From NCBI GenBank assembly GCA_031835245.2, contig JAVKOQ020000014.1, positions 186,001 to 250,000 of the forward strand: 64,000 nucleotides of DNA, written 5' to 3'. The notes below the pieces were generated by a model. It ran no database searches. It was not told the DNA's origin and saw nothing but the letters and a program-made list of their open reading frames with translations. The position numbers and the translations under genes were made by a program. Positions 27,685 through 59,318 of the stretch are shown here, piece by piece. The DNA comes from Balamuthia mandrillaris (taxonomy: Eukaryota). Position 1 is the stretch's first letter. Each line of letters opens with the position of its first letter.

Positions 27685-28684
27685 CTAGTTCCCTTTTGCA
27701 AAGGAGATGACCATGGGGTGCTGTGGCGTGATCTTGAAGTACTGCAAAGCCTCCTTGGCGATGGCGCTCTCCATCTCGTTGCCAAACTCCACAAAGGCCA
27801 TGCCCTTACCACCAGGCACCATTCGCACTTCCTGGAAGCCAGGATACTGTCGGAAGAGCATGGATAACATCAGCTCGTTGGCTTGCTCTGGCAAGTTCTC
27901 CACGAAGAGTTTCTTGTGGGGCGGCTGCTGTTTGGGTTGCGGCAGATGAGGAGTGGAAGAAGTGGAGGAGGGAGCAGAAGCTGAAGAAGCAGCTGTGGTA
28001 GTCTTCTTGGTGTCTTTCTCGTCTTCTTCTTCGCCGGTGGCGACCTTCTTCTTTTTCTTTTTGGGTTGTTTGGGCTTCTTGTCTTGAGGAGGGCGGGGCC
28101 GCTTCTCTCGTGGCTCCCATGTGCCCTTGATCTTGGCCACCAGGTCGGACCTTGTTTTCGCGTATTGCACTTTCTGTGTGTGTGTGTGAGAAGCGAGATT
28201 AGAAAGGGAAAGAAAGGAGAGGAGGAGGCGACCAGCAAAGAGAGGAAGAGTGAAGAGCCAAGAGAGAAAAAGCAGATTGATGAGAAGAAGAAGACGAGTA
28301 CGAACCATAGGTTTGTCGTAGAACATAAACTCGTTTAGGTTGCGCAAGGCGTTGGTAGCGGCGGAAAGTTCACGAAAGATGACAAAAGCCTGTCCCCTCA
28401 TCTTGAGCGTCTTCTTGGCCAGCACATCCAAAACTGTTCCATACTGTGAAAACAAAGTATAGAGCGACCGCCTCAATTCTTGAAATGGTTTAGATGAAAA
28501 CAAAATCCCTCAAATCAAAAAAAGTAGAACAATAAAACATACCTTCTTTTTTCACCCTTTCGTTGAGGTTGTTGACGTAGAGTGTCTCATTGGGAGGGAT
28601 GGTCTCCGAATCTTGTTCGTTTGTGGCGGTGGCGCTGCTGCTCGGTCCATTCCTTTCCTCAACCACGCTTTCTGTGGCCATCAT
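27685..28684 (-). CDS. U1 snRNP A / U2 snRNP B'' family two-RRM protein
   Basis: IPPNETLYVNNLNERVKKEEL..SLY.LFSQYG.VLDV...KTLKMRGQAFV; C-terminal PPHK.LFVENLP...LFRQYPGF.EVRMV. U1A versus U2B'' not resolved. Confidence 0.95.
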
Positions 28685-29242: not shown

Positions 29243-29657
29243 ATGAAAGAACAGTATCGTGTGGATAATGTTCCGCTGTGCCTTCGGCCGGTCTTCCTGC
29301 TCGCCAGCTACTTTCTCGGCAACTCCTTCTGGCTCTACAGCTTCCTCTGCTGCGCCACCCTGCGCGTGCGCACCCACAACCTTCCCCCTGGGCAGAGCCT
29401 CTACTCCTTCCTCTACTCCCGCAACCACATCATCGCCATCTGGCACCAATTCCTCCCGGTGTACCTCTCCCTCCATTCGCGAGCGCGGCAGCTGCCCCAT
29501 TTCACGTTGCTGAACCACCCCGTTTGGTACATGAAGCCCATTCACGTCTTTCTGGAGAGGTTGGGCATGAGGCTGGTCCTGGGTTCCACTGGACATGGCG
29601 GCAGGGACGCCTCCATGCAGGTCATCCTGGCCTTGCGGAGTGGCCACTCTACCTTGG

Positions 29658-29701
<44 letters not shown>

Positions 29702-30137
29702 GCTCTTCTCTCTCCTGTTCTCATTATCGTTTATGTCAAAAACACAGATAACGCCAGACGGGCCAAAGGGTCCTTCCATGCAGATGAAGGCCGGGGCATT
29801 GCACATGTCCGTGCAGTCAGGAGTGCCCATCATTCCAGTGTTCTACAGGGTCTCGCGCAAGTGGATTCATGCCAGCTCTTGGGATAAGAAGATGTGGCCT
29901 CTGCCTTTTGCCGAGGTGGATGTCTACTGCGGTAAACCCGTTGTGGCGGATAAAGACAACATGGAGCGGGTGAAGGACTATGTGACAGCCTGCATGAGCA
30001 GCCCCGAAGCATGTCTGACGCTACAACCTCCTTCACCTTCTTCCTCTACTGCGTCATCTTCAACTTCTCAGAACTCAACCACAACGATGGCTGACGCTTC
30101 AACAACAAACCCAACGGTGCTAACGGCCAAGCTATGA
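29243..30137 (+). CDS. DUF374/lysophospholipid acyltransferase-like protein, copy 1 (2 exons), C-terminal -AKL
   Basis: IIAIWHQ, LGSTGHGG, intron ~29657-29747, ITPDGPKGP..MKAGA..MSVQSGVPIIP, SWDK...PLPF. Confidence 0.8.
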
Positions 30138-30797
30138 ATATTTATTACTTGGTGTTCATCTTATTCACCAAACAGTTTCTTTGGCTTGGCTGAGCATCGT
30201 CCTTTTCTTCAGACTTGATGCACACACCCATTCTCTCTCTCTCTCTCTCTCCTCTTTCTCTCTCTCTCTCTCTCTGCATTGTTTTGTTTATAAAGGGTGC
30301 AGGAAGGCGACAAAGCGCACTTCCCACGAGCAAGCACAAATTATGCCGTCCAGACACGGGTTAGGTGTTGGTTCACAAACCACGCTAGAATCCTACAAGA
30401 GTGCAAGCGGGTAGGAGGGGTTTGCAAAGAGCTCCTTGGGGTTGCTTGATCTCCCCAAGTTTGCTCCCGACGGTAAGTATGAGTTTGTTGTTGCTTCTTT
30501 TGCTTTTTTATAGTTGGGGATCGATGGTTGCACAGGGATGGGACAGGACTATTCCTTGCTCTTTCTTTGAAGTGGACGAAAAAGTTTGGCCACCTGACCT
30601 ATTAGACCCTCCCTCGTCGCCTCTCTTCTCCTCTCTCCTGTCCTTCTATAGCTCGCCTCCTAATAACGGCCATCATCATCAAGCAAAGTGTGTGCCTAAT
30701 ACTGCGTGAGGTGACCCTAATACTGAACGCTTCAGCAGAGAAGAGACGACGAGCCGGGATTGTTGGTAACGCGGGTTGGGGTTGAGAAGACAGAGAA

Positions 30798-31237
30798 ATG
30801 AAAGCAGAGTATCGGGTGGACAATGTGCCGTTGTGCTGGCGGCCTTTGTACCTCCTCCTGAGCTACTTTCTGGGCAACTCCTTGTGGCTCTACTGCTTCC
30901 TGTGCTCCTTCACTCTGCGCACAAGAACGCACAACCTCCCCGCTGGGCAGAGCGACCTGTACTCCTTTCTCTACTCTCGAAACTACATCCTAGCCGCTTG
31001 GCACCAGTTTCTTCCCGTCTTTAGCACCCTTCATGCAGGAGCGAGAGGGCGTCATCCTCCCTTTACTGCCCTGAACCATCCGGCTTGGTACATGAAACCC
31101 ATTCATGTGTTTTTGCAAAGGATGGGCTTTCGGTTGGCGTTGGGATCCACCGGGCACGGAGGAAGGGAAGCCTCCATGCAAGTCATCAGTGCTTTGCAAA
31201 GTGGTCATTCTACCATGGTTTGAGCTCTTCTTCTCCT

Positions 31238-31279
<42 letters not shown>

Positions 31280-31715
31280 TATTATTTGCCCTCCGTTTTT
31301 AGGGAGTATAAAGCTTACTTACTGGGGCTTCAAGATACCTCCAGATGGACCTAAAGGCCCTGCCCAGCAGATGAACGTCGGGGCATTGCACATGTCCATG
31401 CAGTCGGGCGTGCCCATCGTTCCAGTGTTCTACAAGGTATCTCGCAAGTGGATTCATGCCAGCTCTTGGGATAAGAAGATGTGGCCGCTGCCTTTTGCCG
31501 AGGTGGACGTCTACTGCGGCAGACCCGTTGTGGTGGATAAAGACAACATGGAGAGAGTGAAGGCCTATGTGACAGCCTGCATGAGCAGCTCCGAGGCTTG
31601 TCTGACTTTGCAACCCCCCTCATCTTCTGTTTCATCATCGTCATCTTCTTCTTCTCCCTCGTTTTCTTCTGAAAATAAGCCAACAACGGGCAATAATAAT
31701 ACAGCAAAGTTATGA
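30798..31715 (+). CDS. DUF374/lysophospholipid acyltransferase-like protein, copy 2 (2 exons), C-terminal -AKL
   Basis: Paralog of copy 1 with the same intron position (~31218-31334); IPPDGPKGP. Confidence 0.8.
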
Positions 31716-31950
31716 GCCTGCTTGCATTGCAGCACACTGTGTAACATTGGACGCCCTGTGTATTCTTCCTTCTTCTCGAGGCAACGTGCGTGGTCCCTCC
31801 CAGCCTGGCTCTTCCATCCAACTATTAGGTTGATGCGTCGCTTCCCGCAACAAACGTTATAAGAAAAAGTTGAACTCCTCGCGACAAAGAAAGCGTTTGA
31901 CCTTCCCGACGCACGCAAAAGCGGTCCGAACAAGCGAAAACAAGCGGAAG

Positions 31951-32893
31951 ATGAAACGGAAAGAATACCGCGTGGATAACATCCCTTTCTACTTGCGGCC
32001 GCTGTACCTCCTCCTCAGCTACTTCCTCGGTAACTCCATGTGGCTCCTCTGTGTGGTCTGTAACTTCACCCTGCGAACAAGAACGCACAACCTTCCTCCC
32101 GGCTACACTGATCTCTACCACTATCTCAACACGCGGCCGTTCATCATGGCCTCCTGGCACCGCTTCGTTCCTGTGCTGACCGTACTAAACGTAGGCGCAC
32201 GGCAGCGCCTTCCACGTTTGACCGCCATGGGCCATCCGGCTTGGTACATGAAGCCCGTGCATGTGCTAGTGGAGAAGGTCGGCTTTAATCTGGTGATGGG
32301 ATCTACTGGACATGGCGGCAGGGACGCCTCCTTGCACGTCATCCAGGCCTTGCGAAACGGCCATTCTACCTTGGTTTGAATCTACCTCCTCTTCGTACTC
32401 TTATGTTTCAAGAACGGCTTTATCTGTGAGCTCATTCGCTGTTTCCGCTTTATCAACAACAAAGATAATGACAGATGGGCCAAAGGGTCCCGCCCAGCAG
32501 ATGAAACCTGGTGCTGTGCACATGTCTGTTCAGTCAGGGGTTCCCATCCTTCCCTTGTGCTGCCGCGTCTCTGGCAACAAGTGGGTGGATAGCAAGTCAT
32601 GGGACAGGAAGGTGTACCCTCTGCCCTTTGCCAAGGTGGAGATTTTCTGCGGCAAGCCCGTTGTGGCGGACCCTGGCAACGCGGAGCGGGTCAGAGACTA
32701 TGTGACGGCCTGCATGAACAGCCCTGAAGCTTGTTTGACTTTAGAACCCCCTTTGCCTTCTTCTTCTTCTTGTTCTTCTTGTTCTTCTTCTTCTTCTTCT
32801 TCTTCTTCTTCTTCTTCTTCTTCAGCTGCCACACAAGCGGAAACAACAGCAACATCAAACAATGAGCTAAGTTTGGCAACTGCAAAGCTATAA
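31951..32893 (+). CDS. DUF374/lysophospholipid acyltransferase-like protein, copy 3 (2 exons), C-terminal -AKL
   Basis: Paralog with the same intron position (~32374-32464); IMTDGPKGP. Confidence 0.8.
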
Positions 32894-59245: not shown

Positions 59246-59318
59246 GCCTTCTTAGCTCAGTCGGTAGAGCGTCAGTCTCATAATCTGGAGGTCGTGAGTT
59301 CGATCCTCACAGAAGGCA
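59246..59318 (+). tRNA. tRNA-Met (CAT), elongator type, copy 2 (identical to copy 1)
   Basis: Identical 73-nt sequence; TTTTTT terminator at 59323-59328. Confidence 0.97.

Follow-up and report, generated by a model that had tools for sequence, protein, structure and literature searches.

Tandem DUF374 acyltransferase genes with a predicted peroxisomal targeting signal in Balamuthia mandrillaris

Here, we describe three intact tandem genes of the DUF374 family in Balamuthia mandrillaris, a nearly always fatal human pathogen. The genes lie among ordinary eukaryotic genes in a 64-kb window (the whole stretch of DNA that was analysed). Our best reading, to which we would assign a probability of about 55%, is that they are likely derived from bacteria and encode predicted peroxisomal enzymes that would move a fatty acyl group from acyl-CoA to the hydroxyl of a lipid.

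The gene models (Table 1) encode proteins of 267, 266 and 283 aa for genes 1, 2 and 3, respectively. In agreement with the preliminary description of this DNA, all three carry one intron in phase 0 at the identical codon boundary, with HST(L/M) on its 5' side and the xxDGPKGP motif on its 3' side, and splicing reconstitutes across the exon junction a motif that bacterial homologues have uninterrupted. Each model ends in TAKL-stop as had been described; the 12-nt coordinates given for T-A-K-L-stop have the right ends but span A-K-L-stop, with the T codon just upstream. For genes 1 and 2, our models match the NCBI proteins P0092 and P0004 letter for letter. The NCBI model of gene 3, P0093 (252 aa), additionally splices out 93 nt of the Ser run (in frame, GT..AG) and its C-terminus is still AKL. 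A further NCBI model, P0094 (606 aa, other contig), fuses genes 2 and 3 so that both AKL ends are absent.

Table 1. Features of the three tandem genes (positions in the window)
Feature	Position	Strand	Details
Gene 1 exon 1	29243..29656	+	138 codons; spliced model is NCBI P0092; hydrophobic N-terminal helix, W67-H68, HPxWYMKP, GSTGHGG
Gene 1 intron	29657..29747	+	91 nt, phase 0, GT..AG, CT repeat
Gene 1 exon 2	29748..30137	+	TPDGPKGP (D142), SWD (W183, D184), Ser/Thr linker, TAKL-stop
Gene 1 AKL-stop	30126-30137	+	Tail pLDDT <50
Gene 2 exon 1	30798..31217	+	140 codons; spliced model is NCBI P0004
Gene 2 intron	31218..31334	+	117 nt, phase 0, GT..AG
Gene 2 exon 2	31335..31715	+	PPDGPKGP, SWD, Ser linker, TAKL-stop
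Gene 2 AKL-stop	31704-31715	+	
Gene 3 exon 1	31951..32373	+	141 codons
Gene 3 intron	32374..32464	+	91 nt, phase 0, GT..AG; NCBI P0093 has the same junction
Gene 3 exon 2	32465..32893	+	MTDGPKGP, SWD, Ser linker, TAKL-stop
Gene 3 possible in-frame second intron	~32733-32825	+	Within Ser linker
Gene 3 AKL-stop	32882-32893	+	

Raw RNA reads under the same species label covered the trio at a depth of ~1-5x, with gene 3 almost without reads, and at this depth no spliced joints for the three introns were among those listed. One contig of run X1 (guessed to be RNA) retains the gene 1 intron unspliced; in run X5, the depth at the gene 2 intron falls from 3.4 to 0.7 and comes back to 4.1 (~4 reads), part of this intron having been passed over as a repeat. 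Integration into the host genome, as opposed to contamination, is indicated by the spliceosomal introns, the eukaryotic neighbours and the presence on two NCBI contigs, and a DNA contig from another run covers genes 2-3. A fourth paralog (P0005), unlinked to the trio, ends in RAKL. The tandem trio is thus real, but the earlier term "triplicated" understated the number of AKL-ending copies.

The assignment to DUF374 and the LPLAT superfamily proved correct. All four paralogs exceed the Pfam gathering cut-off of 26.8 bits for DUF374 (PF04028), scoring 51.8 (gene 1 allele), 44.9 (gene 2), 42.5 (gene 3 model) and 47.5 (fourth paralog); individual exons alone score 23-24, and the trio proteins gave no NCBIfam match above cut-off. 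The structure model (pLDDT 86.8, tail disordered) has the LPLAT fold: six LPLAT chains top the structural list at Z 8.1-10.9, the next unrelated chain being at 5.0, and Foldseek agrees (E 1.2e-6). The nearest solved structures are Mycobacterium PatA (Z 10.9, rmsd 4.8, 176 residues aligned), Thermotoga PlsC (Z 10.6, rmsd 4.6, 174 aligned) and Acinetobacter LpxM (Z 10.6, rmsd 5.1, 180 aligned). Since these three are tied, the fold alone does not point to a substrate; their identity to the Balamuthia protein is 11-18%, and PlsC is its only sequence match in the PDB (E 1.7e-4).

DUF374 had been considered uncharacterised, but the family now carries the name LpxJ, after a late acyltransferase of lipid A (PMC6148475). 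LpxJ of Helicobacter, Campylobacter, Wolinella and Rickettsia, which acts as the lipid A 3'-secondary acyltransferase, shares the Pfam family and the WH, DGPxGP and WD blocks with the trio, and the two match in a profile-profile comparison over 195 columns with a probability of 100. Residues W60, H61, D86, D132, W172 and D173 are essential in Rickettsia typhi LpxJ (PMC6148475). Five of these six are present in all four paralogs (W67, H68, D142, W183 and D184), as mapped via canonical-type homologues and not via R. typhi LpxJ itself; D86, in the SxxxDG block, has no counterpart, and the block aligns to NHPxWYMKP. Homologues (n = 166) have 42 positions with a conservation of 70% or more, and all four paralogs retain 34 of these. 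The trio is assigned by its motifs (HPxWYMKP and an N-terminal RVDNVP) and by a split from the canonical type with a tree support of 99 to a separate DUF374 subfamily. Bacterial members of this subfamily (Desulfobacterota, Bacteroidota, Gemmatimonadota, Myxococcota, Bdellovibrionota and others) show 35-44% identity over the whole core, but are single-copy, tail-less proteins of ~210-230 aa without PTS1 (0/399) and with a more hydrophobic N-terminal helix. In the literature covered, no characterised member of the subfamily was found; titles and abstract openings, with subscription papers mostly outside this coverage, contained no eukaryotic or peroxisomal DUF374 protein.

The distribution of the subfamily looks bacterial. 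Across bacterial genomes, which represent nine phyla or more, its genes occupy 57 loci; profile scores drop from 538 to 181 bits with none between (best 150 of 6025 matches; in another search the best 120 of 1757 were considered), a profile search gave near-identical bacterial-type proteins only (best 120 of 777), and the four Atlas clusters shown (of 30 matches) are all 100% bacterial. A metagenome scan yielded 51 loci, none with more than 48% identity, and 26 pattern matches in viral contigs included no confirmed relative. Metagenome locus L108, where the match is broken, has frameshifts and no introns. The sole other eukaryote-labelled member among the matches listed is P0179, known from one transcriptome record, and these matches included no further named eukaryote. 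Sources were checked for 19 of 149 other representatives and most of the remainder carry no taxon; therefore, further eukaryotic members may be hidden.

Phylogenetic trees were reconstructed after removal of 22 short or atypical rows and re-addition of two of them, P0180 and P0179 (core only); the rows of the 58-row tree were selected by hand. The Balamuthia proteins fall inside the subfamily in both trees, on a poorly supported backbone. An early presence in eukaryotes (or in amoebae at large), followed by loss from most lineages, strikes us as an unlikely alternative to a recent arrival from bacteria, and one that concerns the origin of the gene only. Such a history would fit the best of the quick trees, in which Balamuthia and P0179 group together (support 14), the long Balamuthia stem (0.84-1.12) and the AU test, which does not reject a placement of the eukaryote rows at the subfamily base (p-AU 0.555, with a log-likelihood higher by 3.66); however, it sits poorly with the dearth of named eukaryotes noted above, with the bacterial Atlas clusters and with a single intron common to the paralogs only. 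Acquisition from bacteria is likely as judged by distribution, and to this extent the preliminary proposal is supported; the tree shows neither the transfer itself nor its donor, nesting or direction.

A PTS1 has the C-terminal consensus [SAC][KRH][LM], and genes 1-3 and P0005 all end in AKL-stop behind a tail that is disordered in the model. In the 64-kb window, AKL-stop occurs four times on both strands (1.25 expected), the fourth (18715, minus strand) lying out of frame within a WD40 exon. The three AKL ends share descent, and therefore selection, not the chance count, is the real test. Purifying selection acts on both the protein core and AKL. The core of the trio has a dN/dS of 0.14-0.31; the linker upstream of AKL has 34-59% amino-acid identity between copies, with indels, which bears out the earlier remark that the tails differ, and the 3' flanks are no more similar than shuffles (z 0.3-1.3). 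In pairwise comparison, the final four codons show no replacement and 2-3 silent differences, and the stop also differs (TGA/TAA). By hand estimate, five of five substitutions would be silent by chance about once in 1000 cases at a silent fraction of 0.22-0.29, or about once in 50 if the three changes of AKL-stop alone are counted. None of 399 other homologues has a [SAC][KRH][LM] C-terminus.

SKL-type C-terminal signals are the PTS1 class (PMC3465988), and Balamuthia has peroxisomes, PEX5 and PEX7, with catalases reported to end in -AKL (PMC7549135). The ending is supported as a PTS1-type sequence signal, and AKL on its disordered linker is predicted as likely to carry the proteins into peroxisomes. 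On the other hand, the 28-residue hydrophobic helix (residues 12-39, KD maxima 1.2-1.75) could alternatively anchor them elsewhere, so that they would work at the ER, lipid droplet or another membrane and AKL would be weak, partial or of other purpose. Thr or Arg at position -4, the few basic residues upstream in the trio and the P0094 model without AKL agree with this. We regard such a location as quite unlikely, considering that selection keeps AKL in four paralogs at two loci, that it is exposed on the tail in the predicted model, that the catalases of this organism carry the same tripeptide and that P0179 has a PTS2-like motif.

Returning to predicted peroxisomal enzymes, one may ask whether they still work as genuine LpxJ enzymes, acylating molecules that resemble lipid A and that come from the amoeba itself or from the bacteria it eats. 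The matching essential residues and the DGPKGP and SWD blocks speak for it, as do the presence of LpxC in 31 of 36 carrier bacteria and the subfamily gene being the sole DUF374 match in 15 of the 36 carrier genomes (many incomplete). However, SxxxDG, replaced here by HPxWYMKP, is found in just one of 294 subfamily proteins, the clades are firmly split, and the bacterial relatives lie outside lpx operons, with no lipid A gene among 96 neighbours. A canonical-type, higher-scoring DUF374 gene is also present in 21 of the 36 carrier genomes and falls within the lpx operon in two of three genomes examined, and characterised LpxJ uses acyl-ACP as donor (PMC6286764). The Balamuthia genes differ further from LpxJ in being eukaryotic and intron-bearing, in having four copies and in their Ser/Thr linker with AKL. 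From these comparisons, the subfamily is not the housekeeping LpxJ, and retained lipid A acylation appears very unlikely.

The least probable alternative is a GNPAT-like role, in which the proteins would acylate DHAP in the peroxisome for the synthesis of ether lipids. The shared superfamily fold (Z 8.1 for human GPAT1 and 9.4 for squash GPAT), the predicted location and the ether lipids made by amoebae (PMC13012113) could be cited for it, but the HX4D motif that defines DHAPAT and relatives (PMC6148475) is absent from the trio, as it is from LpxJ, H68 being followed by QFLPV (genes 1 and 2) or RFVPV (gene 3). The trio belongs to a different family from GNPAT and FARAT, and no GPAT C-terminal or FAR domain was matched in Pfam at E up to 1 in these proteins of 252-283 aa; Acanthamoeba FARAT, at 1214 aa, is about four times as large. 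Acanthamoeba castellanii, of the sister genus, has FARAT, FAR, AGPS and PEDS1 (PMC13012113), so the DHAP acylation step is probably filled in the lineage, as judged from Acanthamoeba; Balamuthia did not come up in that study as far as it was searched. The earlier ether-lipid hint is accordingly weak.

Under our preferred reading of acyl transfer to a lipid hydroxyl in peroxisomes, PEX5 would bind the exposed AKL and import the folded protein, and the N-terminal helix, whose hydropathy lies at the 4th-21st percentile among 266 homologues and somewhat below that of bacterial-type ones, might rest the protein on the membrane's inner face. With D142 polarising it in the manner proposed for LpxJ, H68 would deprotonate the acceptor hydroxyl, which would then attack the acyl-CoA thioester; peroxisomes contain acyl-CoA and are not known to contain acyl-ACP. 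Most likely, the acceptor is something other than DHAP or lipid A. Within this reading, our leading guess, at a little under even odds, is a fatty-chain hydroxyl, as in a hydroxy-acyl group or a fatty alcohol (LpxJ-like chemistry), followed by a lysophospholipid or alkyl-glycerol-phosphate at nearer one in three, and something else would take the small remainder.

To our knowledge, textbook peroxisomal acyl transfer to lipids is the ether-lipid step alone, and we know of no peroxisomal O-acylation of the proposed kind from animals, fungi or plants. If the proposal is true, an LpxJ-family enzyme would add a reaction to the organelle, offer a first way into a bacterial subfamily that is widespread and lacks a known substrate, and represent a bacterial membrane enzyme readdressed to an organelle, possibly twice. 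The reaction would also be important enough in Balamuthia for four copies with diverging specificity. Gain of PTS1 by transferred bacterial genes is known in general, and therefore the surprise is limited. No human counterpart was among the matches listed, and the enzyme family is worth essentiality testing in the pathogen.

P0179 lacks a PTS1 but has a 170-residue extension with R-L-x5-H-F at residues 13-21, a PTS2-like nonapeptide, which we spotted post hoc. Of 393 other homologues, one has such a motif within its first 40 residues, and shuffled sequences produced it in 0.9% of cases. The PTS2 consensus has L/S/G/A/K where the P0179 motif has I (PMC3465988). It is conceivable, albeit tentative, that two eukaryotic lineages have put this sister family of LpxJ to work in their peroxisomes, via PTS1 in Balamuthia and PTS2 in P0179, for a new O-acylation.

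With regard to the copies themselves, one gene may have entered the lineage, then acquired the intron and the AKL tail, and then duplicated to a second locus and later in tandem. Subfunctionalisation had been read from the TPD/PPD/MTD differences, a reading that we rejected, because both positions before DG vary widely in bacterial-type homologues: 294 of these proteins have 21 variants (NP 139, LP 31, MP 27, SP 19, IP 13, TP 13, FP 10, AV 9 and others). PP and MT are absent from the same 294 proteins, three of which have Thr second, so that the variation is mostly within the bacterial range. Gene 3 evolves ~3 times faster than the other copies, which would be better evidence of functional divergence than the motif, and as the fastest-diverging copy it has perhaps changed its specificity.

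Genes 1, 2 and 3, three tandem DUF374 paralogs, lie on the same strand, each interrupted by a single phase-0 GT..AG intron at an identical codon boundary and each ending in T-A-K-L-stop, so that the arrangement proposed in the preliminary description was seen in all three gene models. The trio observation is thus considered real, and the closest homologues of these genes are named Balamuthia mandrillaris proteins. The NCBI records P0092 and P0004 match our models of gene 1 and gene 2 exactly, and the NCBI model of gene 3 (P0093) differs only by removal of a 93-nt in-frame piece of a Ser run. This TCT-repeat run doubles as a well-formed in-frame GT..AG intron; it was crossed by 0 reads, and gene 3 keeps AKL whether or not the stretch is spliced. 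In P0094, an NCBI model on a second contig, genes 2 and 3 are fused and AKL is absent, which we take, from the protein record alone, to be a gene-prediction error. The genes are tandem as described, but the term "triplicated" falls short, since another contig carries a fourth, unlinked paralog with a RAKL end (P0005, 258 aa, 71% identical). The neighbors of the trio are of eukaryotic type (threonyl-tRNA synthetase, a two-RRM U1A-like gene, kinases and WD40 genes), and a contig assembled from DNA of a different run covers genes 2 and 3 together with the DNA between them, so the trio belongs to the host genome.

It is likely (about 85%) that AKL is a working peroxisomal targeting signal (PTS1). 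The paralogs are old (dS 0.83-1.12) with a constrained core (dN 0.12-0.26). Whereas the linker ahead of AKL has acquired indels and drifted to 34-59% identity, and the 3' flanks resemble each other no more than shuffled sequences do, each pair differs in its final four codons by 2-3 silent changes and 0 replacements. A canonical PTS1 end was found in 0 of 399 non-Balamuthia homologues (0/308 in another homologue set), and the tail is disordered in the predicted structure. In addition, catalase-positive peroxisomes, PEX5 and PEX7, as well as catalases with an -AKL C-terminus, have been reported for Balamuthia (PMC7549135).

In RNA reads from runs labelled as the same species, genes 1 and 2 had 1-5x coverage and gene 3 almost none. 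At this depth no spliced joints were listed for any trio intron, and the same reads list joints for both introns of the adjacent U1A-like gene. Read depth in run X5 falls across the gene 2 intron (~4 reads; intron partly skipped as repeat), as splicing predicts. The gene 1 intron is retained in one contig of run X1, which was guessed to be an RNA run. Splicing of the trio is predicted mainly from homology across the junction.

All four Balamuthia paralogs passed the DUF374 cut-off, and the predicted structure fits the LPLAT structures PatA, PlsC and LpxM equally well, in agreement with the proposed membership. However, DUF374 is not uncharacterized as had been stated: the family is LpxJ, with known lipid A acylation (PMC6148475), which acylates the hydroxyl on the 3' chain of lipid A and so gives it a secondary acyl chain (PMC6148475; PMC6286764). 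LpxJ lacks the HX4D motif, and its essential residues are W60, H61, D86, D132, W172 and D173, with H61/D132 as proposed dyad (PMC6148475). Five of these six are retained by the Balamuthia proteins, but in these and their nearest homologues HPxWYMKP stands in place of the D86 block.

Proteins with HPxWYMKP form a subfamily split from canonical-type DUF374 with tree support of 99 and represented across many phyla, in 57 genomes of GTDB. No conserved neighborhood was found for the bacterial genes, with 0 lipid A genes among their 96 nearest neighbors. Of the 36 carrier genomes that were searched (covering 36 of 57 loci), 21 had a second, better-scoring DUF374 gene, and in two of three cut-out regions this gene had an lpx setting, between lpxB and lpxK or msbA and waaA. 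The support-99 split, the lack of lipid A neighbors and the canonical gene alongside suggest that the Balamuthia genes derive from an accessory LpxJ paralog. On the other hand, LpxC occurs in 31 of the 36 carriers, and in 15 the subfamily gene is the sole DUF374 match.

Recurrent neighborhoods were observed only among close relatives: an HYR-domain protein and NAD kinase (L012, L028, L034, L044, L045), a sulfotransferase (L037, L046), and an ECF sigma factor with an aldo-keto reductase (L003, L011). One member, P0102, is labelled Anaerolineales, a group not known to have LPS; it lies on a 1.9-kb contig, falls into a 90% cluster together with Desulfobacterota-type proteins, and its label is probably a binning error.

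In a full scan with the Balamuthia profile, the score falls from 538 to 181 bits. Among the matches listed in word-based searches no named eukaryote besides Balamuthia appeared, except for the record P0179; the Atlas clusters shown were all bacterial, and no viral relatives were found. Judged by distribution only, the gene was quite probably transferred from bacteria. Sources were looked up for 19 of 149 representatives, most without taxon. The bacterial-type distribution agrees with the proposed horizontal acquisition. In the trees, Balamuthia and P0179 are sisters with support of 14, and a basal position of the eukaryotic sequences, which scored 3.66 log units higher, was not rejected. The two eukaryotic lineages may thus share one origin or have separate ones.

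P0179 (EukProt-labelled, 391 aa, 38% identical) lacks a PTS1. Its low-complexity extension (170 residues, short QSIEQSVG-type repeat) contains R-L-x5-H-F at residues 13-21, which agrees except at position 6 with the PTS2 nonapeptide consensus with its key Arg and His (PMC3465988). A PTS2-like motif within the first 40 residues occurs in 1 of 393 other homologues and in 0.9% of shuffles (0.045% with a stricter pattern picked after seeing the motif). If the record is genuine, two eukaryotic lineages may route this enzyme to the peroxisome differently, by PTS1 and by a PTS2-like signal.

Within Balamuthia, P0005 splits off first in a quick tree (support 91; not resolved in another), which would make AKL older than the tandem array. 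Replacements unique to gene 3 number 41-48, versus 16 for either gene 1 or gene 2 (p under 0.001). A 180-nt tract in exon 2 shared by genes 1 and 2 (88-97% identity) may reflect gene conversion. The TPD/PPD/MTD difference, previously read as subfunctionalization, is weak evidence alone, since both residues vary widely in homologues.

Most likely, the protein would be a monotopic acyltransferase on the lumenal side of the peroxisomal membrane, imported through binding of AKL by PEX5 and contacting the membrane via helix 12-39, whose hydrophobicity is below that of 79-96% of homologues. An H68/D142 charge relay would transfer an acyl group from acyl-CoA to a lipid hydroxyl; we consider one on a fatty chain the most plausible acceptor and that of a lysolipid the next. 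Lipid A seems an unlikely acceptor, given the replaced D86 block, the absence of lipid A neighbors and the canonical DUF374 gene often alongside. DHAP, the acceptor implied by the earlier comparison with GNPAT, is also unlikely because the trio lacks HX4D and Acanthamoeba already has FARAT, FAR, AGPS and PEDS1 (PMC13012113; Balamuthia is not mentioned in its text passages and 12 of 15 supplements).

NCBI already annotates the trio as DUF374 proteins. A term search of the main text of the Balamuthia genome paper gave no passages on DUF374, acyltransferase or lipid A (PMC10471605), and no title or abstract opening in the literature listings dealt with eukaryotic or peroxisomal DUF374 proteins. 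The trio would put an already known enzyme family into a compartment, here predicted, that is new for it.

Features of the window discussed in the text
Feature	Position	Strand	Remark
Gene 1 intron	29657-29747	+	phase 0, GT..AG
Gene 2 intron	31218-31334	+	phase 0, GT..AG
Gene 3 intron	32374-32464	+	phase 0, GT..AG
Gene 3 Ser run, second-intron candidate	about 32733-32825		used by P0093
U1A/U2B''-like gene (presumed)	27685-28683	-	two RRMs
U1A-like gene, introns	28174-28305; 28479-28542		both backed by RNA joints
U1 snRNA gene, divergent	30304-30480	-	between genes 1 and 2
tRNA pair, CAU anticodon	59083-59155; 59246-59318		identical, tandem

The U1 snRNA gene opens with AUACUUACC and includes both the GAUCAAG loop and an Sm site; it is 177 nt long versus 166 in the Rfam model and scored 31.4 bits (E 4e-6), under the gathering score of 69.5. 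Reads reached ~50x here versus 1x for the trio, and many continue into differing sequence, so further U1 variants probably exist elsewhere in the genome. The two-RRM gene, which has an RRM match and was named U1A/U2B''-like by us from its motifs, lies 1.6 kb away; that genes for a U1 protein and a U1 RNA sit side by side may be a coincidence. The two tRNA genes are 163 nt apart from start to start.
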